Assembly: GCA_964410905.1 (NCBI GenBank)
Contig: CAYPIR010000011.1
Coordinates: 1,813-65,812 of the forward strand
DNA: 64,000 nucleotides
Source: an uncultured bacterium
GTDB taxonomy: Bacteria; Omnitrophota; Omnitrophia; Omnitrophales; Aquincolibacteriaceae
Direction of reading: 5' to 3'
Part shown: positions 21,513 to 51,606 of the stretch, piece after piece
Layout of the letters: every line of letters starts with the position of its first letter
How positions within the stretch are numbered: position 1 is the first letter of the stretch
Made by a program: the position numbers and the translations under genes
Notes under the pieces: generated by a model
Database searches by the model: none
What the model saw: only the letters and a program-made list of their open reading frames with translations
What the model was told of the DNA's origin: nothing

Positions 21513-21626
21513 CAAATTTGTTCATTGTCATTTCCAGTTAAATCTTTCAGAAATGACGAAGTTTCATCTAACATTTTCTGTGATTCTTTCACACAATTAA
21601 TCAAACGCGAGAGAGTATTATTGTCG

Positions 21627-23543
21627 ATGAGAAGAATTAAAAAAAATTTAATAATCTCAATCGCATATCTTCTAGCCATATCTTCCCCAAGTTCCCAATC
21701 TTTCGCGGGTGATGGTCCGCAAATTTCAAGCTCGCATGAGCAAGATGTGTTGGTTCAAACCTCCTCCGCCGAAGCTCAAGCGCAATCTGCCTCACGAAAG
21801 GTTGCGGTTGTTAAACCGGCCGCGACATCAACAGCGAAAAAACATCTTAGTATCAATAGAAAGCCACCAGCTGTAAAAGCGGCTACTGCGGTTGATGTTC
21901 AAACGGCTACAACTCCTTCAAGTCATCCTGCGACATTAAAAAACAACGCGCAGAATGACGTAATGGACGAGGGCGGCGGCAATATCCGTTACGAACAAAT
22001 TGAACAAACAGATATTCCAGGCGTGAAATTGCCAACGCTTGAAATTCGTAAGTCGACTCAGTCAAGTGGTATGGATGTAAATCCTTTTGCCGATCAATTT
22101 TTTGTTCCGGCAAATCAGAAGACCGCAAATCGCGTGGAACTTGTTCGCGGATTTCCCATAATCAAGACGCCGAATAAATCCAAAAACACCGAATATTCCA
22201 TTGTTACGGATTTCAAATCAAACATCTTAAAATCTCGCTACCTTCCCGGTCTTAAAAATATAAAAGAAATTGACAGCTATATTAAAAGTAATGCTCAAGT
22301 CGCTCAATACGCGGGGACGGAGATTAGGCAACTTCCAGTCCCAACTGTCCAGGGCGGCGTAACAACTCTTTATTTTGTTGGAGAAAAAGCGTTTACGGAT
22401 GCCACCTCCGCGGCTCAAGCGGTAGATTTTGTTAAATTGGCAGTTGAATCATACGGCGGAAACTTTGCTGAAGTTGTGAAATCCGCGCCGGTTTATGTCC
22501 CAGAGCCTGAACCTGTCCTTGAAATAAAAACGCCCGCGCAGTTTAAACGCGAAGAAGAGTTGATGCTTAAGTTCACGGATCAACTTGGTATCGGTGAAAA
22601 GATGTATGGCGTGTTATATGGAGAAAATTCTGGAACGCCGATTACCTGGCAATCGTTTGGCGAAACAAGTTGGCGTATGACAAACCTTTCGGCAAGACAT
22701 TATGATACGCAGGTTGGATATTGGGCAAACCGCATTGTGTTTGGCGGTATTCGCTTTCCTTTAAATAATCTTTCGCCGTTCGTTGAATCAATTGTAAGTA
22801 TGGACTCAAGCGATACGTCCTGGACAAATAATCTTAGACTTTATGTCGGTATGGAATGGCGGCCTTTGGCTCGCAATCCTTGGCTTGTCAATTTTCGTCC
22901 ATACGGCGGGATCCCAATTTTGGAATGGATGCGGAACTATCGTTTTTATATTAAATACGGTGAACAATACAATATTAAAAACGAAATTCTCGGCGCGCAA
23001 CATTATGACCTTATTTGGGGCGTTCAATGTTTTTATGAATGGGGAACGGACTTGTCGCCACTTGACGAAGGAAAACCGGAAACTTTTGCCGACTATATCC
23101 GTCAATATGTTTGGGGAGAATATTTTGGCGACTACTATGTTTCCAAAACAGGATTTGCCAACAAAGCCGAGAAGCCAAGTTACAATGCCATCACGGCAAA
23201 CTCATCGCTTATTTTGGGTATTAAACTTCCCGGCATTCCTCTGCCAGAAAATCCCATAAATAACGAACTGGTTTTTATGCCTTATATGCGGTTTGAGCAT
23301 GTCAATAATTCTGATTATTCTGACTACTATCAAAACCAATACTTCATTGCCGCGGGCGTTCGCATTATGCCTTTCCGCGCATATAAATGGAAAGAAAACG
23401 AATGGTTATCCAAGATTGCTATTTTTGGAGAATGGGTCGGAGTCGGCCGCGCGCAGCGCAACAAACAAGATCCGGATACGCCGCCGTATATTCCCGACTA
23501 TGATTTGCGTTTTGGCGTTAAATTTTCAAGCAGGCGGTTTTAA
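21627..23543 (+). CDS. Secreted outer-membrane beta-barrel-type protein with an Ala/Ser/Thr/Pro-rich N-terminal linker (hypothetical)
   Basis: ATG 21627 gives a signal peptide (MRRIKKNLIISIAYLLAISSPSSQSFA). The low-complexity region contains the repeat-family block HPATLKNNAQND. A W/Y/G-rich ~480-aa C-terminal domain ends in an aromatic residue (..FSSRRF), typical of OMP C-termini. The stop overlaps the next start (TAATG). Confidence 0.5.
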   Translation: MRRIKKNLIISIAYLLAISSPSSQSFAGDGPQISSSHEQDVLVQTSSAEAQAQSASRKVAVVKPAATSTAKKHLSINRKPPAVKAATAVDVQTATTPSSHPATLKNNAQNDVMDEGGGNIRYEQIEQTDIPGVKLPTLEIRKSTQSSGMDVNPFADQFFVPANQKTANRVELVRGFPIIKTPNKSKNTEYSIVTDFKSNILKSRYLPGLKNIKEIDSYIKSNAQVAQYAGTEIRQLPVPTVQGGVTTLYFVGEKAFTDATSAAQAVDFVKLAVESYGGNFAEVVKSAPVYVPEPEPVLEIKTPAQFKREEELMLKFTDQLGIGEKMYGVLYGENSGTPITWQSFGETSWRMTNLSARHYDTQVGYWANRIVFGGIRFPLNNLSPFVESIVSMDSSDTSWTNNLRLYVGMEWRPLARNPWLVNFRPYGGIPILEWMRNYRFYIKYGEQYNIKNEILGAQHYDLIWGVQCFYEWGTDLSPLDEGKPETFADYIRQYVWGEYFGDYYVSKTGFANKAEKPSYNAITANSSLILGIKLPGIPLPENPINNELVFMPYMRFEHVNNSDYSDYYQNQYFIAAGVRIMPFRAYKWKENEWLSKIAIFGEWVGVGRAQRNKQDPDTPPYIPDYDLRFGVKFSSRRF

Positions 23544-26500
23544 TGTCTATTCAATCTAATAACAAAAAATTTGGTTTAAAATTTATAGCAAACGTCGTGG
23601 CGTTTTTTATGATCGCCTCATCGTTTGTGTTCGTTCCCGCTCAGCCCAAAGCATATGCTGCAACGGAATTTGGCAATCTTAATTTTGAACAGCCCTTGGG
23701 CGATGGTATGAACGGAACTTGGTCTAACGGTGAGCCTCAGAAAACATATGCCAAATACGATATTACAACTGCTGAAAAACACAGTGGATCATCAAGTTTA
23801 AGACTTCAAGCATATTACAAAGCAGGTTCGCCTCCAGATTATGAATCGACTTATACTTGGCAGGCTGTAGATGCGAGCGCTGGAGATTATGTGTCTGTTT
23901 CAGGTTGGGCAAAATCGACTGTTGGTTCGGGAGACGCTGGTGCTTTTGTTCAAATAAAATTTGAAAATGCTTCTGGACAGAACCTTTGCGGCGGGCCTGG
24001 TTATTGCGTGCAAACGCCAAAAATCACATCGGGCACATATACTAATTGGAAAGCTTTTCCTGTTATTTCTTATACTGCACCGGAAGGAACCGCTCGTGTG
24101 GTTATCGTTTTAAAAACAGATGGGGTTAGTGGTGGTAGCCCAAGTTATGGAACAACTTATTTTGATGATTTTATTGTAAATGTAACAAGAAACGGACTTA
24201 GTGTTACTGCTTCAAAACAACGAGTTTCTGTAGGCGACGCGGTTGGAGTTAATGGTACATTTACTAATGGTTCGGGCGCGCCGCTCAACGATGTTTTCGT
24301 TCATATTGATATGCCTAGCGGTTTTGACTTTGCTGATAAAACAGTTCGCGTTAATGGCAAACAAGCCATGTCGCAGACTCTGGGCGATATGCCAAACGAC
24401 ACCACTTACACATCAAGCATTGTTTTACTTGTTACAAGCGGCGTGCGTATTGGGCATCGTTACAAAATCCCAGTTTGGGTGGAAGATGCCGTTGGGAATG
24501 TTTTAGGACGGGCATATATTTACTTCGACATTGAAGCAGATCCCGTTTTTGATAAAGGAACGATTATTGGAAAGGTGTTTAATGACTTTAACGAAAACAC
24601 TGTTCAAGATTGCGGTGAAATGGGTGTGCCGTTTGTCAGTCTTTATACTGAAGAAGGCATTGGAATTGTTACCGACGAATACGGACGCTATCACCTTCCT
24701 AATGTAAACCCCGGCAGGCATATTGTGAAAATCGATGGACACAGTTTGCCCGAAGGAACAAAGTTTGTTACGGAAGAGGCCAAACTTGTAAAAACCACGC
24801 GCGGAATGATACAAAAAGCGAATTTTGCGATACTTTTGCCGCCATCTGGGATACCTGAAGAGTTTGCTCAAGACTTGCAAGTTATGGTAACGCAAGGCGT
24901 TGATGTGTTTCAGCCAACGCTTGATGTTTCAATCAATCAAGATGTTCTAAAGCTTGGTGTTGGAGTTTTTGAAAAAGAGCCTGTTTTTACATTCGATAAC
25001 AATTATGGAAAATATATAAAGAAATGGTCGCTTGAAATTCGCGATAGTTTTGGCGAATTGGTTTGGATTGGATATGGCGTTGGACAGCCGCCCGCGGAAG
25101 TTTCTTGGGCGGGCACGGCGGAAAACGGAATGCTTGTTACGCCAGGAATTTATTCTTATCAGCTTAAAGTTCGAGACGAACAATACAATGAAGATTGGAC
25201 AACGTTGAAGTTTTTTGAAGTGATGACTAAAAACGATCCGAAAGCGAGCGGAAATTATCATCCTGAGATTCCGTCAATCGGCGATTTTAATCTTTTTAAA
25301 GACGGCAAACGCAGTATTTCACTTAACGCGAAGCCTGTTGTTAGAGTTCAAGGAACTACTAAACTTGGCAACCAGATCACTATCAACGACACGCCCGTTA
25401 TGGTGGAAGAAGAAAGCGGAATGTTCCAAAAGGAGTTTTTTGTTACGCCCGGCACTCACGACATAAAAATTTCTACAACAAATCAAGACGGCGAAACAAC
25501 GAGCTTCACAAAATCTGTTACTGTAAAAGACAGCTCGCTTTTTATGGTCGCGCTTGCCGAACAGCAATTTGGGCTTAATCACAATCACGGTTCTATGGAG
25601 GCGGTAGAAGGCGATGAGTTCAGAAACGGGTTTCGCCAAGACGGCCGCGTGGCGTTTTTCCTAAAAGGGAAAATTAAAGGCAAGTTTCTTATCAAAGCAA
25701 AATATGACACCGAGGGCGAAGACGAAAATTATTTTACCAACCTCAATCCTAACGACTATTACCCGATTTATGGCGACAACTCAACCCGCGATTATGAAAC
25801 GCTTAGCACAACTCAGAAACTTTATATATTAGTAGAGATGGATAAAGCGTATGTAAAATGGGGAAGTTATGAAACGGAATTTACGGACACGGAACTTGCC
25901 TCGCATAACAGAACTCTTTCCGGTTTGAAAATTAATTATGACTCTGTTGAGACAACGGTTTATGGCGATTCAAAACGCGGGTTTAAACTTTATAGCGCGG
26001 AGTCTGAAACATTGTCCGACCATAACGAACTTTACGCGACGGGAGGTTCGCTCTTTTATACTCGCAATCGCCGAATCGCGATGGGAAGTGAGAAAATTCG
26101 TGTCGAGGTTCGCGACAAGATTCAAAATATGACAATCGCCAGCTATGATCTTCAAGCGTCTACCGACTATGAAATTAACTATGAGGAAGGACGCATTTTG
26201 CTGTCCCGTCCTCTTTCGTCAGTCGCGGCGGCTGACACGCTGATTTCCAACGATATTTTGGACGGCGCGCCGGTTTATTTGATCGTGGACTATGAATATG
26301 AACCTGCCGGACAGGCATATAAGGCGCTTACGAATCAAGGGCTTCGCGGTTATGTTTGGATGGGCGATCACATTCGTGTCGGCGGCACGGCAATTCAAGA
26401 AAAACGCGCTGACGCGGACTATCAATTACGCGGCGTGGACGCGTTGTTTAAAATTGGCCGCAATACAAAGATTACAGCGGAATACGCTCAATCGCTTAGC

Positions 26501-28276
26501 CATCTCAGCGGTTCGTCAGTTTCATATGATGGCGGTATCACTTATGCTGATATTCGTTATGCGGATGCTAGCGGGAACAGACAAAATTATTATAACGGCG
26601 GTGCGATCCCGAAAGACCCGGACACGCTTCAACACGCGTATTTAATCCGTGGTGCGTCTCAGCCCATTCGAGATCTTGAACTTTCTGGATATTTGCAAGG
26701 CGTTGAAAACGGATTTTCCAGCAACTTCAATATAGGTCAAGAAGGAACGCAGAAATATGGAGTTTCGGCACGTTATAAATTTACAGATAATTTTTCAATG
26801 CGTTACCGTTTTGATCGTGAAGACGTAATTGAAACGCTTCTTTCGGGCGGAAACGGTGTTTACGCGCCGTATCAAAATCGCGGCGTTCACACCGCGCAAG
26901 CGGTTTATGACAACGGTAAATATTTAGCCGCGCTTGAATACGCTAAAACAAACGCGTATGACGGTCAGGAGTCTCAATATCTTTTGCCGACAATAGACAA
27001 TCAAATTTCTTTTGACAACGGACTTGCCGCGAAGCTGGGTTATCATATAAACGACAAACTGCTTCCTTATATTAAGGCTCAAACGGTTTATGAAAGCAAA
27101 AGCAACCATCAATTTGGCGCGGGCGTGCGCTATCAAGTTTTAAATGATTTGTACGCGTATATTGAGCAGATGTATGGGAATTACGGAGATTCAACTTATT
27201 TTGGTTTTGAACGACAGCACAAAAACGGAGTCCGAAGTTACGCGAATATCCGCTCAATAGATAGGGGCATTGGCGATAAAGTTATCGGCACGGCGATCGG
27301 GAATTCGTTTTCGCTTACTCAAAACTCACGTGTTTATTCCGAACGTCAATATTCATCATATACCGGAAAAGACGCTTACGCGGATATTTTGGGATATGAA
27401 GGGAAAGCGGGGGATAATTGGGATTATGGAGCAAAGTTTGAACGCAGACGGCTAAATTATAAAGGGGATTGGATTTTAAGCCAGGCCGCGGCGGAATCCT
27501 TGGCGCGCGCGAATACATTTAATACCTTGGGCGGAAATTTGGGTTATGCACGGGGCAAAAAATTTCGCGCACGGACTTATTGGGAAATTCGTCACGATAA
27601 AGAGTCGCCGTCATTAGCGCAAATCGTAACGAGAAACTCCGTTAAATATCAATTTAACGAAGAATGGTCATGGCTTTCATATATGAATTATGGCGTGTCT
27701 GATCAATATGGAGAGGCCTCTGATTCCGCGAAATTTTTGGAATGGAATACAGGATTTGCGTATCGTCCGATTTATTGCGACAAATTGAATATGTTGGGCC
27801 GCTATACTTATACGCGTGATTTTGCTCCTGAGCAGCAATGGAAAAGTTCTTATTACAATGGCTATGGAACGGACGAGTCGGCGCATATTTTATCTTTTGA
27901 TATTGCTTATGATATAAGTAAATATTTTGGATTGGCCCAAAAATTTGCATTTAAGCAATCGCGTCTTTTTACCTCATATGGCGATACTGTCGCGGCGAAC
28001 ACGTTCTTGACTGCCACACGAGTAAATTTTCATGTAACCCGCAAATGGGATTTCGCAGTGGAGTATAGAATTTTGGGACAAAGTTACGCGCAAGAAACAT
28101 TGCGGCAGGGGGTCGTTGTTGAGCTTGACCGCGAAATTTATGAGTATGTTCGGCTTGGGATCGGCTACAATTTCACTGATTTTAGCGATGATTTGCGTTA
28201 TGACCAGGGCGATGTCCGCACAACTGACAACCTTCGTTCCAACGGCTTTTTTGTTCGCATGACAGGCAAGTTTTAA
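23543..28276 (+). CDS. Giant (1577 aa) secreted outer-membrane protein: signal peptide, CBM4/9-like jelly-roll module, SdrD-B/Cna-B-like beta-sandwich repeat(s), very large C-terminal beta-barrel-like domain
   Basis: Signal peptide (FMIASSFVFVPAQPKAYA). Residues ~40-215 have the CBM_4_9 pattern (W..GE....S...L.....G.....W...V.A..GDYV.SGWAK......F.AP.G.AR....L......YFDDF). GKVFNDFNENTVQDCGEMGVPFVSL..TDEYGRYHL.NVNPG is SdrD-B-like. The last ~900 aa are Y/G/N/D-rich alternating strands ending ..FFVRMTGKF. Confidence 0.6.
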   Translation: MSIQSNNKKFGLKFIANVVAFFMIASSFVFVPAQPKAYAATEFGNLNFEQPLGDGMNGTWSNGEPQKTYAKYDITTAEKHSGSSSLRLQAYYKAGSPPDYESTYTWQAVDASAGDYVSVSGWAKSTVGSGDAGAFVQIKFENASGQNLCGGPGYCVQTPKITSGTYTNWKAFPVISYTAPEGTARVVIVLKTDGVSGGSPSYGTTYFDDFIVNVTRNGLSVTASKQRVSVGDAVGVNGTFTNGSGAPLNDVFVHIDMPSGFDFADKTVRVNGKQAMSQTLGDMPNDTTYTSSIVLLVTSGVRIGHRYKIPVWVEDAVGNVLGRAYIYFDIEADPVFDKGTIIGKVFNDFNENTVQDCGEMGVPFVSLYTEEGIGIVTDEYGRYHLPNVNPGRHIVKIDGHSLPEGTKFVTEEAKLVKTTRGMIQKANFAILLPPSGIPEEFAQDLQVMVTQGVDVFQPTLDVSINQDVLKLGVGVFEKEPVFTFDNNYGKYIKKWSLEIRDSFGELVWIGYGVGQPPAEVSWAGTAENGMLVTPGIYSYQLKVRDEQYNEDWTTLKFFEVMTKNDPKASGNYHPEIPSIGDFNLFKDGKRSISLNAKPVVRVQGTTKLGNQITINDTPVMVEEESGMFQKEFFVTPGTHDIKISTTNQDGETTSFTKSVTVKDSSLFMVALAEQQFGLNHNHGSMEAVEGDEFRNGFRQDGRVAFFLKGKIKGKFLIKAKYDTEGEDENYFTNLNPNDYYPIYGDNSTRDYETLSTTQKLYILVEMDKAYVKWGSYETEFTDTELASHNRTLSGLKINYDSVETTVYGDSKRGFKLYSAESETLSDHNELYATGGSLFYTRNRRIAMGSEKIRVEVRDKIQNMTIASYDLQASTDYEINYEEGRILLSRPLSSVAAADTLISNDILDGAPVYLIVDYEYEPAGQAYKALTNQGLRGYVWMGDHIRVGGTAIQEKRADADYQLRGVDALFKIGRNTKITAEYAQSLSHLSGSSVSYDGGITYADIRYADASGNRQNYYNGGAIPKDPDTLQHAYLIRGASQPIRDLELSGYLQGVENGFSSNFNIGQEGTQKYGVSARYKFTDNFSMRYRFDREDVIETLLSGGNGVYAPYQNRGVHTAQAVYDNGKYLAALEYAKTNAYDGQESQYLLPTIDNQISFDNGLAAKLGYHINDKLLPYIKAQTVYESKSNHQFGAGVRYQVLNDLYAYIEQMYGNYGDSTYFGFERQHKNGVRSYANIRSIDRGIGDKVIGTAIGNSFSLTQNSRVYSERQYSSYTGKDAYADILGYEGKAGDNWDYGAKFERRRLNYKGDWILSQAAAESLARANTFNTLGGNLGYARGKKFRARTYWEIRHDKESPSLAQIVTRNSVKYQFNEEWSWLSYMNYGVSDQYGEASDSAKFLEWNTGFAYRPIYCDKLNMLGRYTYTRDFAPEQQWKSSYYNGYGTDESAHILSFDIAYDISKYFGLAQKFAFKQSRLFTSYGDTVAANTFLTATRVNFHVTRKWDFAVEYRILGQSYAQETLRQGVVVELDREIYEYVRLGIGYNFTDFSDDLRYDQGDVRTTDNLRSNGFFVRMTGKF

Positions 28277-28345: not shown

Positions 28346-28729
28346 ATGAAAAAACTTTTTTCTTTTTGTCTTATCGCGGCCTTGACTCTTTCGCTTTCCG
28401 CTTGCAAAACGCTTGAAGTCGCGGACCCGTCCGCGAAGAAACTCACGTTTCAACTCCCGTATGATCTGACGTATTTGCGAGTTCTTGAAGCCGTTGATGG
28501 TTATAAGGATTGGCAGCTCGCGCTGACTGAAAAAGAGCAAGGAACTTTGAAGCTGCGCGATGTTAATTATTCAAATTTAGTGGATGCCGATTTGCGCGAA
28601 ATAACGATTTTGATTGAACGCATTGATCCTACCACGACGGCGGTTTATCTTTCTCCGAGTTCACAAAAAGGCGGAAAAGATGTTTTGAATAAGATTAAGG
28701 AGACGCTCGCAAAAGTTGTAAAGCGTTAA
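28346..28729 (+). CDS. Small lipoprotein (hypothetical, 127 aa)
   Basis: ATG 28346 gives MKKLFSFCLIAALTLSLSAC with a lipobox LSAC. The track ORF starts at an upstream in-frame Met (28280), which lacks signal-peptide logic. Confidence 0.45.
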   Translation: MKKLFSFCLIAALTLSLSACKTLEVADPSAKKLTFQLPYDLTYLRVLEAVDGYKDWQLALTEKEQGTLKLRDVNYSNLVDADLREITILIERIDPTTTAVYLSPSSQKGGKDVLNKIKETLAKVVKR

Positions 28730-31653: not shown

Positions 31654-32061
31654 ATGAAAAAACAAATTTTGATTTCGCTTATTTTACTATGTCTGGCCTG
31701 TCTCAATCTTGCCTCGGTTCGTAAAAACGAAGATCCAATTTTAAATACTCAAGCCGAAGGCGTTCTTTATCGGCAGAAAATGGAAGAAGAAAAAGACGGA
31801 GTAAAAGGGCCGCTTCTTTATCATGTCCGCAACAATCCGAGCGACACATTTTTTATTGACCCGCCATTCGCAAAAGACACTTCAAGTGAATATAGTTATG
31901 AAAAATCTGATAGCGCGGTCGGACGGGAAGATGTTAACTCGTGGTGGGATGACTCCAGCGATGATAATGCTTTAGAGGGCGAAAAAGGAGGATCATATAC
32001 TTCTGAGCGAACAGTTGAAGAAGCCGCAAACGATAGCTCTAATGACGATGGTTGGTGGTAG
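31654..32061 (+). CDS. Small secreted acidic protein (hypothetical, 135 aa)
   Basis: Signal peptide MKKQILISLILLCLACLNLASV followed by a D/E/S-rich sequence ending DDGWW. No recognisable domain. Confidence 0.35.
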   Translation: MKKQILISLILLCLACLNLASVRKNEDPILNTQAEGVLYRQKMEEEKDGVKGPLLYHVRNNPSDTFFIDPPFAKDTSSEYSYEKSDSAVGREDVNSWWDDSSDDNALEGEKGGSYTSERTVEEAANDSSNDDGWW

Positions 32062-33883: not shown

Positions 33884-35269
33884 ATGGGGCGAATTCGGGC
33901 TTTAAAATTTACCGCGTTCGCCCCTTTTTTATGTCTTATTTTAGCGGCCTCTTTTTTAAGTGGCTGCGGACAAGCGACTTTCCCCGAAGAAAAACTTAAG
34001 CGGTCTCTCCAAGAAATAGCTCTCAAAGAATATTCCATTCCCAATATTGAAGTGGAATTCAAAGGAACAACGCTGGGCGTTTACTTACCTCTTAAAAATT
34101 TGTTTGCTATGGATTTTAAAGAGGCGATTTTAAAAGGAGAAGAATTGGATATGGAAACTCTTTTTAGGCCAAGCGAAGAAGCGGTTGGGCAAGTGGAAGA
34201 TATTCTTTTCTCTATGTCGCGGGTGATGCTTAGCACAGATAAAAAAATAGAGTTTTATTATCTGCAGGCAACCGACGGCGAAAAATCTGCGATGGATTTG
34301 ACGTTTCTTGGGCATATTGATGACCTTAAGCGTGTCAGATTTTGGGATATCCCCAGAAGCGAATATCGAAAACGTATTATTCATGATATGGGGATAAACC
34401 GCGCCGTGCTGCAGCACAGACCCGTTAAGAATTTTTTTAAAGATTTAAACGAGGCGGATCTTAAAACGATAGAAAAAAAATATTTCTCTAAAAAAAATAA
34501 AGAGAAATGGGAAAAAGAGTTCTTTTTTGTTGATTATAAAGGAAAAAAACTTGAATACGGCATTGTGTCTTGGGCTGTTTTAGATATGCGCAGCATACCG
34601 CTTGAGGACGGGAAAGTTGCCGTTTATGTTAAAGTGTTTTTTGCTCCAAAAGAATCGGGCGTATCGGCAAGCATTGAAGGCGAGAGGGAATTTGTTTTTA
34701 TTGTTTCGGCAAGTTTAGGTCAAAACGCGGTAATCACGCAAATTATTCCTATGACGGAACTTGATAAAATGGAAGCGCCGTCTGATTTCGCGTTTACCCG
34801 CGAGGCGATTTATGAAAGTTTGCCTGGTTGGGAGCGTGATTTTGAAACTCCTGATATGACTATGGAAAAGTTCTTGTCCCTTCAAATTACACGCCGCTGC
34901 CAGGAGTTATTAATGAAAGACGAGAGAATTTTTAATACTTTTTCCGACGCCAAAGGGGCGTTCCGCTTTGAGCAAGCTCGAGAGCCGAGATTTATTTTTG
35001 AATCAATGGCGCTTCTGAAAGATAAAAAACAAAAAATCGTGTCAGACGATGGCTCGATTAACGAAGACATTTTATATTTGTGGAGCACCGTCGCACGAGA
35101 ATTTGTTGATGTTCTTCATAGTTATGGATTTGAAAACTATATATCGCTTGATTTTCAAACCACAGGCGAGGATGATAAATTGACGACGCGGACGGCAAAC
35201 AAAAGAGATCTGGAGCTTTTTCGTAAAAATAAAAAATCTCTAAAAGATGCTTTGATAGATCTGAATTAA
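33884..35269 (+). CDS. Lipoprotein of unknown function (461 aa)
   Basis: Signal peptide with lipobox FLSGCG. No recognisable catalytic motif. Lies directly downstream of the ftsH-like gene. Confidence 0.45.
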   Translation: MGRIRALKFTAFAPFLCLILAASFLSGCGQATFPEEKLKRSLQEIALKEYSIPNIEVEFKGTTLGVYLPLKNLFAMDFKEAILKGEELDMETLFRPSEEAVGQVEDILFSMSRVMLSTDKKIEFYYLQATDGEKSAMDLTFLGHIDDLKRVRFWDIPRSEYRKRIIHDMGINRAVLQHRPVKNFFKDLNEADLKTIEKKYFSKKNKEKWEKEFFFVDYKGKKLEYGIVSWAVLDMRSIPLEDGKVAVYVKVFFAPKESGVSASIEGEREFVFIVSASLGQNAVITQIIPMTELDKMEAPSDFAFTREAIYESLPGWERDFETPDMTMEKFLSLQITRRCQELLMKDERIFNTFSDAKGAFRFEQAREPRFIFESMALLKDKKQKIVSDDGSINEDILYLWSTVAREFVDVLHSYGFENYISLDFQTTGEDDKLTTRTANKRDLELFRKNKKSLKDALIDLN

Positions 35270-37290: not shown

Positions 37291-38655
37291 TTGAATGTGG
37301 AAGTAAAGACAACAGTAAATCTTCAGACAAAGCGACCTCCTCAGAATATCGAAGCGGAAATGAGCGTTTTAGGTGCGATGTTCATTGACGCCGAGGCGAT
37401 TGACCACGCTATAGAAATTCTTCGTCCGGAATATTTTTATGATTCTCGCCATCAAAATATTTTTCAAGTAATACTCGACCTTTCTTCGCGTAACCACCCC
37501 GTAGATCTTATTTCCGTTTCTGACGCTTTAGAAAAAAATGGACAATTAGATTTTGTTGGAGGAAAAACATATTTGATGCAGCTTCAGGAAATGGTCCCGA
37601 CCGCGGCGAATGTTGAATATTATTCCAAAATAGTTAAGGAGAAAGCTCTTCTCAGGGAATTGATTCGTTCGGCCACGGAAATTGTTCAAGAAGGTTTGGA
37701 GTCCGATGGAGACGCGAAACAAATTATAGAAGACGCTGAGAAAAGAATTTTTGAAATTGGGCAATCTCAAATTAGCAAACGAGCAGTCCCGATAAATGAG
37801 ATTATTAACAGCACAATTGAAACCATTGAAATGCTCTCGCAAAGAAAAGAAGCGATAACGGGGCTCGCGACCGGTTTTCGAGATTTTGATAAAAAAACCG
37901 CAGGATTGCAACCGTCAGATTTAATTATTATCGCGGGGCGGCCGTCTATGGGAAAATCGGCTTTCGCCGGCTCTATTTGCGAACACGTGGCGGTTCATCT
38001 TAAAAAGGGTGTTGCCATTTTCTCTCTTGAAATGAGTAAAGAACAGCTTGTCCAAAGAATGCTTTGTTCCCAGGCTATGGTTGAGTTGTCGCGCGTTAGA
38101 AACGGATATTTGTCAGGCGAAGATTGGAGCAAATTGACTTTGGCCGCGGGCAAATTATCCGAGTCGCCGATTTTTATAGATGACGCGCCGGGGCAAACGG
38201 TTTTGGAAATTAGAGCAAAGGCAAGACGGCTTAAAATGAAACACGATATTTCACTAATTGTGATAGACTATCTCCAGTTTATACAGTCGGCGAAGCGAGC
38301 CGAAAATCGTCAGCAGGAAATCTCGGAAATTTCTCGTTCTCTTAAGGCTTTGGCACGTGAGCTTCGCGTGCCTGTAATTGCCGTAAGTCAACTTTCTCGT
38401 CAAGTGGAACAACGAACTGGCAATCGCCCGCAACTATCAGACCTTCGCGAGTCGGGAGCAATTGAGCAAGACGCTGACGTGGTTGTGCTTCTTTTTAGAG
38501 AAGATTATTATAAAGAAACCGAAGAAAATAAAAACAAAGTAACGGCTATTATAGGTAAGCAGCGTAACGGTCCTACGGGAAGTGTTGACCTAATGTTTCT
38601 CAAAGAATTTACGCGCTTTGCTGATTTGGACACCGAACATCAGGAGGATTTTTAA
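37291..38655 (+). CDS. dnaB: Replicative DNA helicase
   Basis: PPQNIEAEMSVLGAMFID N-terminal domain, Walker A GRPSMGKSAFAG, and IVIDYLQFI and SQLSRQVEQR motifs. The stop overlaps the bamA start. Confidence 0.9.
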   Translation: MNVEVKTTVNLQTKRPPQNIEAEMSVLGAMFIDAEAIDHAIEILRPEYFYDSRHQNIFQVILDLSSRNHPVDLISVSDALEKNGQLDFVGGKTYLMQLQEMVPTAANVEYYSKIVKEKALLRELIRSATEIVQEGLESDGDAKQIIEDAEKRIFEIGQSQISKRAVPINEIINSTIETIEMLSQRKEAITGLATGFRDFDKKTAGLQPSDLIIIAGRPSMGKSAFAGSICEHVAVHLKKGVAIFSLEMSKEQLVQRMLCSQAMVELSRVRNGYLSGEDWSKLTLAAGKLSESPIFIDDAPGQTVLEIRAKARRLKMKHDISLIVIDYLQFIQSAKRAENRQQEISEISRSLKALARELRVPVIAVSQLSRQVEQRTGNRPQLSDLRESGAIEQDADVVVLLFREDYYKETEENKNKVTAIIGKQRNGPTGSVDLMFLKEFTRFADLDTEHQEDF

Positions 38656-40994
38656 TGAAAAGAGTTTTTTTATGGTTGTTCTTAGTAGGCATTTTGAGCG
38701 CAAATACCTTACCTTTGATTTATGCTGACGCAAACTCAGGTGATAGCGGCAACGCAGCGAATCCTTCCGTTTCGTCTTCGTCTACAGGTAAGGCTATATC
38801 TGAAATTGAGGTTCGTGGGAATAAAATCGTTAGCACCAATACAATTTTGAGTAAAGTCCAGAGCCAGCAAGGCGTAGCGTTGAAGCAGCAGACGGTAAAT
38901 GAAGATATTAAGCGTCTCTACGCGACAGGTTTTTTTGATGATGTTAGGCTGGAAGTAGAGGATTTGTCATCAGGGTATAAATTGATAGTCAACGTGAGCG
39001 AGAAACCGATTGTAAAGCAAATTATTGTCGAGGCCGGAACCGCTTTTAAAGAAGATAAGATTCGCAAAACGTTAGGCGTTATAGAAGGACAGATTTTAGA
39101 TCGCAGCGCGGTGAAAAAAGGCGAAGCGGAAATCAAAAAACTTTATGCGAATAAAGGTTACAGATTTGTCGATGTTGAAACTTCCATGGAGGAAGACGCG
39201 CAGCAAAAAGAAGCCACTATAAAAGTAAAAATCACCGAAGGCAAAAAATATAAAATCGATAAAATTTCTTTTGAAGGAAATCACGCGTTTACAAATAAAG
39301 AACTTCGCAAGTTGATGAAAACGAAGGCGAAAATGTGGTTCCTTTTTGGAACGCTTAAGGAAGAGGATTTTGAAAAAGACATTGAAAACCTGACCTTCTT
39401 TCATCAAAAAGAAGGTTATCTTGACGCGAAAGTCGCGCCCGAATTTACGTATAACAAAGAAAAAGATACTATACAAGTCCTTATCAAAATTGAGGAGGGC
39501 GCGCATTACGAGACTGGAGCGGTTTCATTTAAGGGCAACAGCCTTTTCCCCGAATCCGAACTTTGGCAAGAAATTGAAATGTTGCCGGGGCTTTCTTACT
39601 CCCAATACTATGTAGCGCAGGATATTGAAAAGCTGCGTTATTTTTATTCAAGTCAGGGATACATTGAAGCGCGAATTGTTCCTGATGTGCGAATGAACAG
39701 CGGGACGCACAAAATTGATGTAACTTACGAAATACAAGAAGGCGAACTCTTTTTTGTAGATCGAATTCAAATTCGCGGGAACACAAAAACACGCGACAAA
39801 GTAATCCGCCGCGAACTTCGCGTCCGTCCCGGCGAACGCTTTGATGGAAAGAAAATTGAAAAGTCCAAAGAGCGTCTTCAGAATTTAAATTACTTTGAAG
39901 AAATCACTTATGATACGGAACCGTCGGACACGGAGCCTAACAAAAAAGATCTTATCTTTCGCGTTAAAGAAAAACGGACAGGCGAGCTTTCATTCGGCGG
40001 CGGAGTTAGTTCTGTCGATGCATTTATGGGATTCGCGGAAATTTCTCAGCGTAACTTTGACATTTTAAATTGGCCAAGGCTTACAGGCGGCGGACAAAGT
40101 TTATCTCTTCGCGGACAAATTGGAACAATTAGGCAAGAATACGATTTGAATTTTGTTGAGCCTTATCTTTTCAATAAGCCTATTTCTTGGGGCACAAATA
40201 TTTATGCCACAGAGCAGGATAACGACAACACTCTTTTTGGCGAAAAACGCATGGGCGCGTCCACATCAATTTCCCGACTCTTTAAGGACGTGTTGAGGCT
40301 TGGAACAGGATACACCATGGAACGAGTTAAGTTGGAAGAGATTGTCGGCGGCGCTCCAAAATCCGTCACGGATTTCAAAGGACCGGAGTGGCTTTCCCGC
40401 GGACGTATTTTTGCGACATTTGATAATCGCGATAATGTGATGAATCCAACTAAAGGACGCGTTGCAAATATAAGCGGCGAACTTGTCGGCAGTTTTTTAA
40501 GTGGCGACCGTGATTACTACATATTTAAAACAGGATATACAGAATATTTTACATTTTTTCAAAAGCATCAAATAGAGCTTCAGACGCGTCTCGCCACAAT
40601 AGATTCACTGGGAGATGACGATGTTTCTCCAGCATATGACAGATTTTTTGCTGGAGGACTTGGAACGGTTCGCGGTTTTGATTATCACAGAGTCGGACCT
40701 CAGTGGAACGGTCAAGCACTAGGCGGACAAACGATGGCTATTGTTAATATCGATTATACATTTCCGCTGCCAAAACTTGACGCGTTTAGAGGAGTCGTTT
40801 TTATTGACGCGGGGCAAGTAAATGCGGATTCGTATAAAATAGACGCCGGAGAGTTTTGCGTCAGTGTTGGACCTGGTATTAAAATCAAAACTCCTATCGG
40901 GCCGCTTGCGTTTTACTATGGACTCCCCATTAAAAATAAATCTGACAAAGATAAAAATGGGCGTTTTGAATTTAGTCTTAGCAAAAGTTTCTAA
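38655..40994 (+). CDS. bamA: Outer membrane protein assembly factor BamA
   Basis: 779 aa. Signal peptide, five POTRA-like repeats (e.g. ISFEGNHAFTNKELRKLM, IQIRGNTKTRDKVIRREL) and a C-terminal 16-strand barrel region ending ..FEFSLSKSF. Confidence 0.85.
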   Translation: MKRVFLWLFLVGILSANTLPLIYADANSGDSGNAANPSVSSSSTGKAISEIEVRGNKIVSTNTILSKVQSQQGVALKQQTVNEDIKRLYATGFFDDVRLEVEDLSSGYKLIVNVSEKPIVKQIIVEAGTAFKEDKIRKTLGVIEGQILDRSAVKKGEAEIKKLYANKGYRFVDVETSMEEDAQQKEATIKVKITEGKKYKIDKISFEGNHAFTNKELRKLMKTKAKMWFLFGTLKEEDFEKDIENLTFFHQKEGYLDAKVAPEFTYNKEKDTIQVLIKIEEGAHYETGAVSFKGNSLFPESELWQEIEMLPGLSYSQYYVAQDIEKLRYFYSSQGYIEARIVPDVRMNSGTHKIDVTYEIQEGELFFVDRIQIRGNTKTRDKVIRRELRVRPGERFDGKKIEKSKERLQNLNYFEEITYDTEPSDTEPNKKDLIFRVKEKRTGELSFGGGVSSVDAFMGFAEISQRNFDILNWPRLTGGGQSLSLRGQIGTIRQEYDLNFVEPYLFNKPISWGTNIYATEQDNDNTLFGEKRMGASTSISRLFKDVLRLGTGYTMERVKLEEIVGGAPKSVTDFKGPEWLSRGRIFATFDNRDNVMNPTKGRVANISGELVGSFLSGDRDYYIFKTGYTEYFTFFQKHQIELQTRLATIDSLGDDDVSPAYDRFFAGGLGTVRGFDYHRVGPQWNGQALGGQTMAIVNIDYTFPLPKLDAFRGVVFIDAGQVNADSYKIDAGEFCVSVGPGIKIKTPIGPLAFYYGLPIKNKSDKDKNGRFEFSLSKSF

Positions 40995-41014
40995 TTTAAA
41001 GAACGGATTCTAAA

Positions 41015-41767
41015 ATGATAAGAAAAAAATTTTTACTTTCAGCGTTGGCGGGCGTGTTAAGTTTTTCTTTTCTAATTCCTTTTGCGTTTTCAACCGAACG
41101 TTGCTGCGAACAAGAATATCCCAAAGTAACAGTGCAGGGAGAGGGAAAAATTGAAACGGCTCCCGATAAAGCGAGTTTTAATTTCAATCTTCGCGTAGAA
41201 GAGAAAAAACTAGAAAAAGCGTTTGAAGAAAGCTCTAATCGGATTAATAAAACATCTGCCGCTTTAGCGAAACTTGGTATCCGAAGCGAGGATATAAAAA
41301 ATCAGGGTTACTCCTATCAGCCTTTATATGAAGGAAAGAAGTTTTTTTCAACCATAGATAAACCCAGCAGCTATGAAGTTACTTATACATTGAAGGTAAC
41401 AGTGCTTAGTCTTGATAATCTCGGTAAGATTTTGAATGCTCTTTCCGAAATCCCAGAAAGCCGTGTGGAGAATTTGGAGTTTGCTTCAATGAAAATTGAC
41501 GATTTAAAACGAGACGTTTTGAAAAAAGCCGCGGAAGACGCAAGACTTAAAGCGGCAAAATTGGCGGAAGGCGCCGGAGCAGCGATTGATTCGGTTTTAA
41601 ATATTTCATCGTATGTAAGCGGAGGCTATAGACCCGTAATGAAAATGGCGATGGCAGACGATGCGGCGATGTTGAAGACGGCATCATCCGCGTCTATTGC
41701 GCCATCTATAGAGTCAGGAACAATAGAAGTTTCCGCGCAATGCACAGTTGTTTATTCATTAAAATAA
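41015..41767 (+). CDS. SIMPL/DUF541-family periplasmic protein
   Basis: Signal peptide, then VTVQGEGKIETAPDKASFNFNLRVEEK and the typical two-lobed SIMPL pattern. Inserted between bamA and skp. Confidence 0.65.
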   Translation: MIRKKFLLSALAGVLSFSFLIPFAFSTERCCEQEYPKVTVQGEGKIETAPDKASFNFNLRVEEKKLEKAFEESSNRINKTSAALAKLGIRSEDIKNQGYSYQPLYEGKKFFSTIDKPSSYEVTYTLKVTVLSLDNLGKILNALSEIPESRVENLEFASMKIDDLKRDVLKKAAEDARLKAAKLAEGAGAAIDSVLNISSYVSGGYRPVMKMAMADDAAMLKTASSASIAPSIESGTIEVSAQCTVVYSLK

Positions 41768-41792
41768 TCTAAACCTCAATCAAGGAGAATAT

Positions 41793-42302
41793 ATGAAAAA
41801 GGCAATGCGTTTTTTCGCAGTGTTTTTCACGGTAGCATTTCTTGTTTCTTCGGTCGGATTTGCGGCAGAGTTGAAAGTCGCGTTTGTTGAAGTGAGTGAT
41901 GTGTTTGACGGCTATCAAAAGACAAAAGATCAGGATTTGCTTTTGAAAACGGCAGGTGAAGCAAAGGAAAAAGAACGCACGGATATCACTAACAAGATTC
42001 GCGCCATGGAAGATGAGCTTGCGCTTCTTTCCGCGGATACTCGTGGCAAAAAACAAGAACAATTGATAGAAGAAAAACGAAAACTCGAAGATTTTGACCG
42101 CAATGTCCGTCAACAGCTTGCTGAGCAGCGTGACAAAGTTGTTCGTGAAATTTTTGAAGAAATCGATAAAGTGATACAAGAAATCCGTGAAAAAGAAGGA
42201 TACGATATGATTTTTAATAAACGCGTTCTTCTAGCTCAAAAATCGGAGTTTGATTTAACAGAAAAAGTTTCTACCGAGCTCGCGAAGCGATATAAAAAAT
42301 AA
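41793..42302 (+). CDS. skp: Periplasmic chaperone Skp (OmpH family)
   Basis: 169 aa. Signal peptide, then the ELKVAFVEVSDVFDGYQKTKD start of the OmpH fold, then long coiled-coil helices. Canonical position after bamA. Confidence 0.7.
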   Translation: MKKAMRFFAVFFTVAFLVSSVGFAAELKVAFVEVSDVFDGYQKTKDQDLLLKTAGEAKEKERTDITNKIRAMEDELALLSADTRGKKQEQLIEEKRKLEDFDRNVRQQLAEQRDKVVREIFEEIDKVIQEIREKEGYDMIFNKRVLLAQKSEFDLTEKVSTELAKRYKK

Positions 42303-42318
42303 GCGGTATATCTAAGAC

Positions 42319-43611
42319 GTGATTAAGCAGCAAACAATAAAAGCAAAAGTTTCGCTAGAGGGCGTTGGACTTCATACCGGAAATAAAATTAGGGTAACGC
42401 TATGCCCAGAGCCAGCCGACAGCGGCGTTTCGTTTTGTCGTGTCGATCTAGATGCGAATTTAAAAGCCTCTGCCACATTTGAAAATGTTAGAACGGATGA
42501 GCTTCGTCAAACTTCCATTATTGTTGGAAAAGGGCGAGTGAGGACGGTAGAGCATTTGATGTCGGTATTTCACGGGCTTGGGATAGATAATATAACCGTT
42601 GAGATAGACGGCGATGAAGTCCCCGGAATGGATGGAAGCGCGTTAGAGTTTGTTAAAGCCATTCAGGCGGTTGGCTTGGAGCAACAAGACGCTCCGCGTA
42701 AGTTTCTTGAAATAAAAGAAACGGTAGTTGTTGATCGCGGCGATCAATCAATAGTCATTGTGCCGGCGGCCGCTTTCTCTGTTTCTTATACTCTTAGCTA
42801 TCGCGATCCAAACCTTTTAGACCAAAATGCTACATTTGTCATAACACCGGAAATTTTTTTGAAAGAACTTGCTCCTGCTAGGACGTTTTGTCTCAAGAAA
42901 GAGGCCGAGCAACTTTTGGCTTTGGGACTTGGCAAAGGCGCTAACCCAAACAACACACTGATTTTTGAAAATAATAAACCGATAGAAACAACATTAAGAT
43001 TTGAAAATGAACCGTGTCGCCATAAAATCACAGATATTATCGGCGACCTTTTTTTATGCGGAAAATTTATCCGCGGACATGTTATCGCTTCGCGAAGCGG
43101 GCATGCTCTTAACTCTGAAATAGTGAGGAAATTAACCATGAGTGAAAATGCGCAAACTCCACAAAATAATTTAGGAACTTTGAACGTGGAGCAAATCCAA
43201 AAAATCATTCCGCATCGTTACCCGTTTCTTTTTGTCGATAGAGTTGAAAATCTCGTCCCGGGTGAACGAGCGACAGGATTTAAAAATGTAACGATGAACG
43301 ATTATTTTTTTCAAGGGCATTTCCCCGGACATCCAGTCATGCCGGGGGTCTTGATTGTTGAGGCGATGGCGCAAGTTGGCGGCGTGATTATGCTTCAAGA
43401 ACCGGAAAATGTCGGAAAAATCGCTTATTTTATGAGCGTTGATTCTGTTAAATGGCGAAAACCGGTATTGCCCGGCGATACGCTTAGAATGGAAGTTGTG
43501 GTTGTAAAAAAACGCTCGTCATTTGGACAATGCGAAGGCAAGGCCTATGTTGGCGACAAACTAGTATGCGAAGCAGATGTAAAGTTCGCAGTGGTTGATA
43601 GGGAGCAATAA
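42319..43611 (+). CDS. lpxC/fabZ: Bifunctional UDP-3-O-acyl-GlcNAc deacetylase / 3-hydroxyacyl-ACP dehydratase (LpxC-FabZ fusion)
   Basis: The N-terminal ~290 aa carry LpxC motifs (KQQTIKAKVSLEGVGLHTG.., HKITDIIGDL, GHALNSEIVRKL). The C-terminal ~145 aa are a FabZ hot-dog (IPHRYPFLFVDRV.., FFQGHFPGHPVMPGVLIVEAMAQ). Confidence 0.85.
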   Translation: MIKQQTIKAKVSLEGVGLHTGNKIRVTLCPEPADSGVSFCRVDLDANLKASATFENVRTDELRQTSIIVGKGRVRTVEHLMSVFHGLGIDNITVEIDGDEVPGMDGSALEFVKAIQAVGLEQQDAPRKFLEIKETVVVDRGDQSIVIVPAAAFSVSYTLSYRDPNLLDQNATFVITPEIFLKELAPARTFCLKKEAEQLLALGLGKGANPNNTLIFENNKPIETTLRFENEPCRHKITDIIGDLFLCGKFIRGHVIASRSGHALNSEIVRKLTMSENAQTPQNNLGTLNVEQIQKIIPHRYPFLFVDRVENLVPGERATGFKNVTMNDYFFQGHFPGHPVMPGVLIVEAMAQVGGVIMLQEPENVGKIAYFMSVDSVKWRKPVLPGDTLRMEVVVVKKRSSFGQCEGKAYVGDKLVCEADVKFAVVDREQ

Positions 43612-44378: not shown

Positions 44379-44424
44379 ACTATTTGCGTAAGTGATATAG
44401 ATTCAAAATTTCTGGAGCAGCAAA

Positions 44425-51445: not shown

Positions 51446-51606
51446 ATGTACAAGAAGGGCAAAGCTTAGTCTACTAATAATCGATAAAAATCTATTTTGG
51501 GCAGATTATTAGTAAATAATCAATTAAAAATTATATTTTTTTCATTTCGCGAGCGATAAATTTAAACATTATTTTTAATGAACCCGTTTCGCGAGAGGAG
51601 AAAAAT

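Follow-up and report, generated by a model that had tools for sequence, protein, structure and literature searches.

The gene triad and its predicted products

The stretch of DNA analysed here, 64,000 nucleotides from an uncultured bacterium of the phylum Omnitrophota (hereafter the window), contains three consecutive genes, termed A, B and C, of which the second encodes a protein of 1577 residues that is predicted to end in an outer-membrane barrel of about 40 strands. The GC content is 42% across the window, and the gene products match proteins of metagenome-assembled genomes (MAGs) of Candidatus Omnitrophota. The three genes and the junction between the first two are located as follows (aa, amino acids; ORF, open reading frame):

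21627..23543, + strand: gene A, encoding a predicted 638-aa outer-membrane protein (ORF listing and sequence)
23541..23545, + strand: TAATG, the stop/start overlap of A and B (coordinates)
23543..28276, + strand: gene B, encoding a predicted 1577-aa outer-membrane protein with a signal peptide at aa 1-39 (ORF listing and sequence)
28346..28729, + strand: gene C, encoding a 127-aa lipoprotein, directly downstream of B

The initial annotation, made from the sequence alone, described A and B as adjacent genes that are joined by a TAATG, and the coordinates agree with it: the TAA stop of A (23541-23543) and the ATG of B (23543-23545) have base 23543 in common. The first start codon in the reading frame of A is a TTG at 21525. 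The signal peptide begins at the methionine at 21627 (MRRIKKNLIISIAYLLAISSPSSQSFA, followed by GDG), and an identical public copy of A starts at this methionine. The N-terminus of B is MSIQSNNKKFGLKFIANVVAFFMIASSFVFVPAQPKAYA, followed by ATEF. Read from the sequence, each N-terminus shows the n/h/c pattern of a Sec-type signal, as had been proposed, with likely cleavage sites between SFA and G in A and between AYA and A in B. The terminal aromatic residue that had been pointed out is a phenylalanine in both proteins (...SSRRF in A; ...VRMTGKF in B).

In 51 of 59 loci, a start codon in the frame of B overlaps the stop of A or is no more than 30 nt away from it, and 8 of these loci show the same one-base overlap as here. 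More than 100 homologues were found for each of A and B, with identities of 35-68%, and no names are attached to the three proteins in their public copies. Scans of the window with Rfam and for tRNAs found nothing, and a scan for promoters and terminators gave results close to chance level that were uninformative.

The predicted giant barrel of B

The C-terminal part of B was assigned from a structure model and from residue covariation:

25529..28273, + strand: predicted giant beta barrel of B, aa 663-1577, with about 40 wall strands, ending ...VRMTGKF

The AlphaFold2 (AF2) model of B covers residues 590-1577 and has a predicted local distance difference test score (pLDDT) of 73.7 and a predicted template modelling score of 0.68. 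It consists of one immunoglobulin (Ig)-like domain followed by about 43 long strands, which are connected by short turns and occasional long loops and give an all-beta meander throughout the barrel region. Foldseek matched this model to outer-membrane barrels only. SlpA of Deinococcus was found first, and then TonB-dependent receptors, MtrB, SprA and LptD. The barrel-like C-terminal region of about 900 residues in the initial annotation is thus borne out by the meander at 663-1577 and by the nature of these matches. The template modelling (TM) scores were about 0.2 (range 0.1-0.27), which suggests that the type of barrel is shared with these structures and that no solved structure is close to B.

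One explanation for such a protein is that B belongs to a known large-barrel family (TonB-dependent receptor/SusC, LptD, usher, Omp85/TamA, or alginate or polysaccharide export) and has been inflated by insertions, next to an A that is soluble in the periplasm. TonB-dependent receptors, LptD, MtrB and SprA do appear in the Foldseek list with E values of 1e-5 to 1e-7. However, all TM scores are at the level of generic barrel likeness (0.15-0.27 for BtuB, FhuA and Fiu; 0.14-0.20 for LptD). A TonB-dependent receptor or SusC consists of a Plug domain, a 22-strand barrel and a TonB box. Searches of B with Pfam and NCBIfam at E values up to 1 gave no match to TonB_dep_Rec (PF00593), Plug (PF07715), LptD/OstA (PF03968, PF04453), Usher, POTRA/Omp85 or Alginate_exp, and the Pfam scan found no POTRA or Omp85 profile in A either, so that Omp85, TamA and TpsB were rejected for both proteins; the BamA of this genome is encoded at 38655-40994. 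Sequence searches of the PDB with single sequences and with profiles returned nothing except SdrD. A core of 22-26 strands with low-complexity insertions cannot be fitted into the roughly 43 regular strands and their short turns, C has no match to LptE, and A is modelled with a confident 12-strand barrel that ends in phenylalanine. Membership of a known family is very improbable. None of the SusC, TamA/Omp85, alginate-export and LptD families matches B, which lies outside the TonB-dependent receptor and LptD families and is far larger, as had been proposed.

For the covariation analysis, barrel domains were taken from three protein searches, a scan of GTDB genomes and a metagenome scan, and were aligned with a hidden Markov model (HMM). 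The resulting 455 sequences (effective number 377) were analysed by mean-field direct coupling analysis (mfDCA), and mutual information with average product correction (MI-APC) served as the control. By mfDCA, the antiparallel ladder score had a median of 0.67 for adjacent strands against 0.21 ± 0.075 for non-adjacent strands, and 33 of the 42 adjacent pairs were above the 99th percentile of the non-adjacent pairs. Strands S1 (B 671-682) and S43 (B 1565-1576), at the two ends of the meander, had a ladder score of 0.53 (z 4.3), which ranked third among 861 non-adjacent pairs and first among the 780 pairs that are at least four strands apart. By MI-APC the same pair had a z of 3.2 and ranked third of 780. 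A smaller first data set had given a z of 2.7, and the S1-S43 signal therefore grew with the number of sequences. A split into two barrels of 8 and 35 strands was rejected, since the ladders that would close them, S1-S8 (0.14) and S9-S43 (0.18), are at background.

Strand S7 pairs with S10 (ladder 0.55) and S8 with S9 (0.61), which suggests that the segment made of S8, an insertion and S9 (B 822-928) is an excursion from the wall. When this excursion and the five-residue S14 are removed, 40 wall strands are left. In the 40-strand numbering, every loop of at least 13 residues in the AF2 strand list falls at an odd-to-even junction, and this is the pattern expected of extracellular loops if the N-terminus is periplasmic. 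Dyad hydrophobicity is clear in about half of the strands, which agrees with a membrane barrel but has no discriminating power.

Between S25 and S28 (B ~1217-1273), ladders between strands that are two apart were as strong as those between neighbours (S26-S28 0.56; S25-S27 0.40). These ladders may come from a hairpin indel or from a register shift between subfamilies, and they would add an uncertainty of about two strands to the count.

The case from the model and the covariation for one closed barrel of 38-42 strands is good but not conclusive. According to a 2026 preprint, the largest known barrel is that of SprA, with 36 strands (bioRxiv 10.64898/2026.03.07.710327). The predicted barrel of B, with about 40 strands, would be larger than any solved barrel. 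Three proteins of D. radiodurans have been mentioned as predicted 38-stranded barrels (PMC9388160), so that the prediction of a single chain with more than 36 barrel strands has a precedent.

The insertion and the invariant loop

The excursion described above carries a distinct insertion:

26006..26326, + strand: beta-rich insertion of about 105 aa in B, aa 822-928, within the loop that joins wall strands 7 and 8

Residues of this insertion covary with positions far away in the wall (model pairs 312-573, rank 6 overall; 316-628, rank 11; and 311-573). Further model pairs (253-150, 290-148 and 283-144) link them to an invariant YYPxYGDxS loop. This suggests that the insertion and the YYPxYGDxS loop fold into the lumen, like the insertions of SlpA (PMC9388160), and the insertion probably lines or partly plugs it. 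Contacts in a homo-oligomer may be an alternative source of these covariation signals. Going by the inferred topology, the loop that carries the insertion would be extracellular. Between the Ig domain and the barrel, the covarying pairs were weak and topologically mixed.

The invariant loop itself has 37 residues (B 723-759; window ~25709-25819), connects wall strands 3 and 4, and contains the most invariant motif of the family, D-x-x-Y-Y-P-x-Y-G-D-x-S. Its pLDDT in the AF2 model is below 50, and its covarying partners are the insertion domain and model positions 784-787. It could be a metal, ligand or inter-subunit site.

The N-terminal arm of B

The residues between the signal peptide and the barrel were divided into six regions:

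23660..24187, + strand: head domain, aa 40-215, beta-rich, no significant HMM match
24188..24532, + strand: DUF11/CLIPPER-like Ig domain, aa 216-330 (E 0.026, sub-threshold)
24533..24847, + strand: SdrD_B (CnaB-type) domain, aa 331-435 (24.7 bits, E 2.8e-5)
24848..25222, + strand: linker and FlgD-Ig-like domain, aa 436-560 (E 7e-4)
25223..25336, + strand: conserved linear segment ...GDFNLFKDGKRS..., aa 561-598, with nearly invariant residues in alignment A1
25337..25528, + strand: Ig-like domain (Glucodextran_B-like), aa 599-662 (AF2 pLDDT 79-88)

In B itself the Pfam and NCBIfam matches are below threshold (DUF11 at 220-299, SdrD_B at 344-411, FlgD_ig at 490-543 and Glucodextran_B at 599-662). 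The SdrD_B match (PF17210), for example, reached 24.7 bits against a gathering cut-off of 29.7. In the orthologs P0052, P0059, P0081 and P0084, SdrD_B is above the Pfam threshold with 33.8-36.4 bits; the DUF11/CLIPPER domain passes in P0084 and FlgD_ig in P0059. In addition, a profile of the B family matched the crystal structure of SdrD in a PDB profile search (E 1.2e-6). Because the same domains pass the thresholds in orthologs and the SdrD structure is matched, the Ig-type arm of B is real, and the SdrD-B/Cna-B-like module that had been noticed is upheld. An alignable SdrD_B arm is present in 197 sequences (effective number 147).

The head fared differently. A CBM4/9 jelly-roll had been proposed for aa 40-215, and no profile of the carbohydrate-binding module (CBM) families matched B or seven orthologous heads in Pfam at E values up to 5; a PDB profile search was also empty. 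The weak matches of the head to NTTRR-F1, an HpiC1-like domain and MG2 were not significant. The CBM4/9 assignment, and with it the suggestion of glycan capture, was thus supported by no search, though the head may still have a jelly-roll fold.

The conservation of these regions was compared as the mean pairwise identity among 40 Omnitrophota orthologs. The CLIPPER-like domain (0.35) and the head (0.38) are the least conserved regions of B, and the SdrD_B domain is the most conserved (0.76), above the barrel (0.55-0.66). The Ig-like domain directly precedes the barrel and belongs to a unit that is conserved throughout the family. No OmpA_C-like domain (PF00691), SLH domain or other recognisable wall-binding domain was found in B with Pfam and NCBIfam, and the OmpA domain is absent from A and C too. 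The segment at aa 561-598 stands where relatives of B have an OmpA domain and about 190 aa.

An unannotated family of giant barrels

A phmmer search with the barrel of B against 1.84 billion representatives gave at least 2,691 clusters at 50% identity, of which 882 had E values of 1e-30 or lower. Among the matches listed, the barrel match lies at the C-terminus or within about 130 residues of it, in proteins of 450 to 7,612 aa. The scan of GTDB genomes found the family in at least 463 species of Omnitrophota, Planctomycetia, Desulfobacterota, Nitrospirae and Gammaproteobacteria. The signature of the family is an Ig-like domain and a beta meander of about 900 aa that ends in G-K-[FY], with the YYPxYGDxS loop and the insertion TGGSLYY...DYEIDY..GRI. 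B has this signature in the invariant columns of alignments A1, A2 and A5, and a BLASTP comparison with the relative P0089 showed 27% identity over 1,042 aa (E 2e-94). B is thus the Omnitrophota ortholog within a very large unannotated family and not an isolated oddity. No described family matches A and B in Pfam, NCBIfam, PDB sequences or PDB folds, in agreement with the initial annotation, and no description of the barrel family of B, of the module made of A, B and C, or of a barrel behind an OmpA domain was found in the literature.

The relatives have the domain order head, CLIPPER, SdrD_B, FlgD_ig, OmpA, Ig and barrel. A peptidoglycan-binding OmpA domain and about 190 residues thus separate FlgD_ig from the Ig-barrel unit, and in most relatives outside Omnitrophota this is a canonical OmpA domain just upstream of the unit. 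The heads vary (Big_1/Invasin_D3, Calx-beta, Big_9/CshA repeat, or PKD with a PQQ propeller). Some relatives have stalks of CLIPPER repeats that are thousands of residues long, with up to about 6,700 residues N-terminal of the barrel, and some have only OmpA, Ig and barrel, for example P0313. Domains of these types, with an 'OmpA-like anchor', have been described for the fibrillar adhesins of Gram-negative bacteria (PMC12617251, PMC10952558).

Omnitrophota also have a second paralog of about 1000 aa that consists of Ig domain and barrel only (P0323 and relatives; loci L086-L089; P0420, P0439 and P0444). No A-like or C-like neighbours were found beside these paralogs. Their existence suggests that the barrel has a function without a passenger.

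Full-length relatives were also found in MAGs labelled Clostridia (loci L071 and L073, in GTDB records labelled Clostridia bacterium). These are either diderm Firmicutes or mis-binned contigs.

Proteins A and C and the conserved module

Protein A was modelled with AF2 over its full length (pLDDT 75 overall, above 90 in the folded parts) and has the following parts:

aa 1-27, from 21627, + strand: signal peptide
21708..22070, + strand: disordered tail rich in Ala, Ser, Thr, Pro and Lys, aa 28-148 (pLDDT 30-46)
22074..22586, + strand: alpha/beta domain, aa 150-320 (pLDDT 92-97)
22644..23540, + strand: predicted 12-strand beta barrel, aa 340-638 (12 DSSP strands, aa 340-637)

In the model, aa 1-17 are the signal helix and aa 19-148 are disordered, with a pLDDT below 50. 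The long linker of the initial annotation is therefore found as a disordered tail; its placement in the periplasm follows from the standard topology of barrels and is thus less firm. The length of the tail varies among orthologs, and homologues, which are 445-929 aa long, align only to the C-terminal 76% of A. More than 120 homologues were found; those named by source are all labelled Omnitrophota, and no Pfam domains were found among them.

The barrel dominates the Foldseek matches of A, which do not reflect the alpha/beta domain. The best matches are 12-strand barrels, namely AIDA-I, EspP, Hbp and BrkA (the beta domains of autotransporters), FapF, COG4313 and NanC, with target-normalised TM scores of 0.3-0.46 for the 12-strand barrels and 0.27-0.43 for the four autotransporters. 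These matches and the 12 strands of the model confirm that the C-terminal half of A looks like a barrel, as had been claimed. Together with the C-terminal phenylalanine, the confident barrel speaks against A as a soluble periplasmic protein, and the model strongly supports an outer-membrane protein with a 12-strand barrel, an alpha/beta domain and a disordered tail. A, including its alpha/beta domain, has no sequence match in Pfam, NCBIfam or the PDB, and PF03797 (Autotransporter) was absent from A and B in the Pfam scan. The idea that the alpha/beta domain or the barrel of A is a split-off piece of the OmpA-to-Ig region of the relatives was rejected, as HMM searches of the B relatives were empty.

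The third gene, C, is strongly supported as a small lipoprotein. Its product begins with MKKLFSFCLIAALTLSLSAC... and has the lipobox LSLSAC, in which the cysteine is invariant among homologues. No match of C was found in Pfam, NCBIfam or the PDB, and it has no similarity to LptE. The start of uvrA follows six bases after C.

The gene order dapF-dapA-dapB-A-B-small gene-uvrA-x-ftsH was found in two distant Omnitrophota MAGs. In a tblastn search over 165 loci, essentially every B ortholog (at least 34% identity) with enough flank had A on its upstream and C on its downstream side, and neither A nor C was next to the more distant relatives of B. In nearly all ortholog loci of Omnitrophota, the triad is flanked by dapB and uvrA. 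It is strongly supported that the three genes are co-inherited and co-expressed, and the best explanation is that they form an outer-membrane module specific to Omnitrophota. The two-component system of the initial annotation has to be extended accordingly: the pairing of A and B is real and conserved in related genomes, where adjacency and tight spacing recur in the 51 of 59 loci, but the unit has three genes, with the lipoprotein C as the third.

Possible functions and comparison with known systems

Strong support exists for the insertion of B by the beta-barrel assembly (BAM) machinery, which is encoded 10 kb downstream. The topology and function of B are inferred. The reading we prefer is that B is a barrel-anchored, adhesin-like surface protein with A and C as two accessory subunits, to which we give a probability of about 45%.

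According to this reading, B would be a compact, short-armed member of a widespread family of barrel-anchored proteins resembling fibrillar adhesins. The giant barrel would anchor the N-terminal arm in the membrane and would probably also serve as its passage, in the manner of a type V autotransporter at a far larger scale. The proximal SdrD_B domain, FlgD-Ig domain, linker and Ig domain would dock in or at the barrel, which could account for the strong conservation of the proximal domains. The fast-evolving head and the CLIPPER-like domain would face outward and bind a ligand on a surface or a partner cell. In other phyla the OmpA domain beside the barrel would tie the assembly to peptidoglycan. 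In Omnitrophota this domain would have been lost, with A and C co-inherited in its place. By analogy with LptE on LptD and DR_0644 on SlpA, A and C would serve as caps, plugs or braces of the wide barrel.

Two known systems resemble parts of this picture. The fibrillar adhesins (PMC12617251, PMC10952558) have, like the relatives of B, a tandem stalk of CLIPPER/DUF11 domains, CnaB-type domains, a variable head and OmpA. In the literature OmpA is the C-terminal anchor of these adhesins, whereas in the relatives of B it is followed by about 900-1,100 further residues that make up the unannotated giant barrel, and B itself differs in its short arm without OmpA. Type Va autotransporters have a signal peptide, passenger-like N-terminal repeats and a C-terminal barrel with a terminal aromatic residue, as B does, and a beta domain with the fold of the barrel of A. 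However, they have 12 strands and a pore helix; the barrel of B is more than three times larger, and the relatives of B have an OmpA domain between stalk and barrel. Assignment to type Va was rejected, because PF03797 was not found, A has no passenger, and B combines a passenger-like arm with about 40 strands. An extended form of the preferred reading takes the whole B family as a hitherto unrecognised class of self-anchoring display system, in which an autotransporter with a giant barrel of about 40 strands, which would be the largest known, passes its own Ig stalk through the lumen, pinned by OmpA in most phyla and partnered by A and C in Omnitrophota. We consider this form possible but rather unlikely. 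If it is true, it would account for the way in which the many Gram-negative 'fibrillar adhesins with an OmpA anchor' get across the outer membrane and keep hold of it.

Several points weigh against B as an adhesin-like surface protein. The OmpA domain of the relatives sits between stalk and barrel, so that a stalk on the surface would have to traverse the lumen and come back into the periplasm ahead of strand 1; an arm that is wholly periplasmic has a simpler topology. The Omnitrophota paralog with only Ig domain and barrel indicates a role for the barrel without a passenger. The lumen, at about 7 nm, is far wider than a stalk requires. One-to-one orthology and deep synteny with housekeeping genes are closer to what one expects of a structural protein of the envelope than of a typical adhesin. 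The roles proposed for A and C are drawn from analogy, and the strand count comes from one AF2 model (pLDDT 74), with an uncertainty from covariation of about two strands.

Some of these points lead to another explanation, in which the arm of B is wholly periplasmic and the three proteins together brace the outer membrane, or set its spacing, relative to the cell wall, as SlpA/OmpM and OmpA do, with the barrel as a scaffold or general pore. The closest comparison here is SlpA of D. radiodurans (PDB 8ae1/7zgx/8agd). Like B, it has a very large C-terminal single-chain barrel, insertions in the lumen and an N-terminal arm; like the module, it has an accessory lipoprotein, DR_0644 (PMC9388160), which may be compared with C; like the relatives of B, it has a wall-binding domain before the barrel; and its structures are the best Foldseek matches of B. 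Standard barrel topology places the residue before strand 1 in the periplasm. The canonical OmpA domain just upstream of the Ig-barrel unit in most relatives outside Omnitrophota and the relatives that consist only of OmpA, Ig and barrel fit a connector, as do the paralogs with Ig and barrel only. B is moreover a single conserved ortholog amid housekeeping genes (dapF-dapA-dapB-A-B-C-uvrA-ftsH). On the other hand, SlpA has 28-30 strands against about 40 in B, a TM score of 0.2 and no sequence similarity, and it uses SLH and a coiled coil where the B family has OmpA and Ig-type domains and B itself has neither SLH nor OmpA. Membership of the SlpA/OmpM connector family was rejected on the lack of an SLH match, the absence of a helical stalk from the all-beta modelled part, and a fold likeness that is generic. 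For a connector role as such, the difficulty is that CLIPPER, CnaB-type SdrD_B, Big_1/Invasin_D3, Calx-beta, CshA repeat and PKD domains are found almost only in extracellular stalks (PMC12617251), that the roughly 6,700 residues before the barrel in relatives are hard to fit in the periplasm, that the distal head evolves fastest, as a part facing the environment would, and that B has no OmpA, SLH or recognisable wall-binding domain. A connector or scaffold is a possibility to which we give limited credence.

The width of the barrel has also to be considered with respect to transport. B might be a channel or translocon for large substrates, that is, a gated conduit of about 40 strands for folded or very large cargo such as the giant proteins of Omnitrophota, in which the insertion, C and the periplasmic domain of A form a plug or cap, as in SprA-PorV-Plug and LptD-LptE. 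SprA, the translocon of type 9 secretion (T9SS), is like B a giant single-chain barrel and appears among its Foldseek matches. The lumen of SprA needs caps and plugs from partner proteins. The predicted barrel of B exceeds even the 36 strands of SprA, and so wide a lumen must be gated; the covariation of the insertion with far wall positions is plug-like. A co-inherited lipoprotein, barrel-only paralogs and an ORF of at least 4,130 aa located 23 kb downstream, in a phylum in which giant ORFs are common (PMC10066038), are in line with a channel. However, B has no SprA domains, no T9SS genes are nearby, B carries an adhesin-like N-terminal arm, and its barrel is compact, with about 915 aa for some 40 strands compared with more than 2,000 aa in SprA. 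Beyond the generic barrel, B has no relation in sequence or fold to SprA, secretins, ushers or Omp85/TpsB, and the conserved neighbourhood contains no secretion ATPase, chaperone or cargo gene. The adhesin-like arms fused to the barrel in relatives would not be explained by a channel, which we regard as improbable.

LptD-LptE resembles B and C in its N-terminal beta-rich domains, its large C-terminal barrel and a small lipoprotein encoded alongside, and by analogy a similar plug-and-barrel logic is possible for B and C. LptD differs in strand number (26), in the lack of any LptD/OstA match in B and in the lack of other lpt genes in the conserved neighbourhood of the module; B as an LptD was rejected on these HMM results, on the low TM scores and on the absence of an LptE match in C. 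As a TonB-dependent receptor or SusC, B was rejected on the missing HMM match, the roughly 43 predicted strands and the generic TM scores.

Genomic surroundings

The remainder of the window contains the following features:

31654-32061, + strand: ORF of 135 aa, no Pfam match
33884-35269, + strand: ORF of 461 aa, no Pfam match
38655-45261, + strand: envelope-biogenesis cluster with bamA, a DUF541/SIMPL protein, skp (OmpH), LpxC-FabZ, lpxA and lpxI
49775-51073, + strand: BBP2 (OmpL-like) porin of 432 aa, just upstream of the giant ORF
51520-64000, + strand: giant ORF of at least 4,130 codons (methionine at ~51607), which continues past the end of the window and starts with the signal-peptide-like MKKTFLFIRLIAGLTALIFS

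The ORFs of 461 and 135 aa also stand next to ftsH and uvrA in other Omnitrophota MAGs (as genes of 452 and 134 aa in L001). The bamA gene at 38655-40994 encodes five POTRA domains and Omp85. The presence of BamA, Skp, LpxC-FabZ, LpxA and LpxI suggests that the organism makes lipopolysaccharide and inserts barrels via BAM. The LpxC-FabZ fusion (430 aa) is unusual. 'Giant ORFs' have been reported for Omnitrophota (PMC10066038), and the ORF at 51520-64000 fits this description; its product might be a cargo or a partner of surface systems.

Significance

The finding is real and not ordinary, and several functional readings compete. Outer-membrane barrels with accessory lipoproteins are of a kind already known. 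What is new here is an outer-membrane barrel family that has not been described, with a size that is unprecedented as predicted from the model. At least 2,691 protein clusters have no family annotation over about 900 residues. If the prediction holds, the size range of single-chain outer-membrane barrels extends past SprA, and one may then ask how some 40 strands are folded and sealed into a barrel by BAM. The family would also offer a testable answer to how environmental Gram-negative adhesin-like proteins, which are now annotated as 'OmpA family' or 'DUF11 repeat', are anchored. Omnitrophota are ultra-small bacteria that are thought to live attached to other cells. A three-gene envelope module found throughout the phylum is a prime candidate for a surface structure that would serve in such contact or in the integrity of the envelope.

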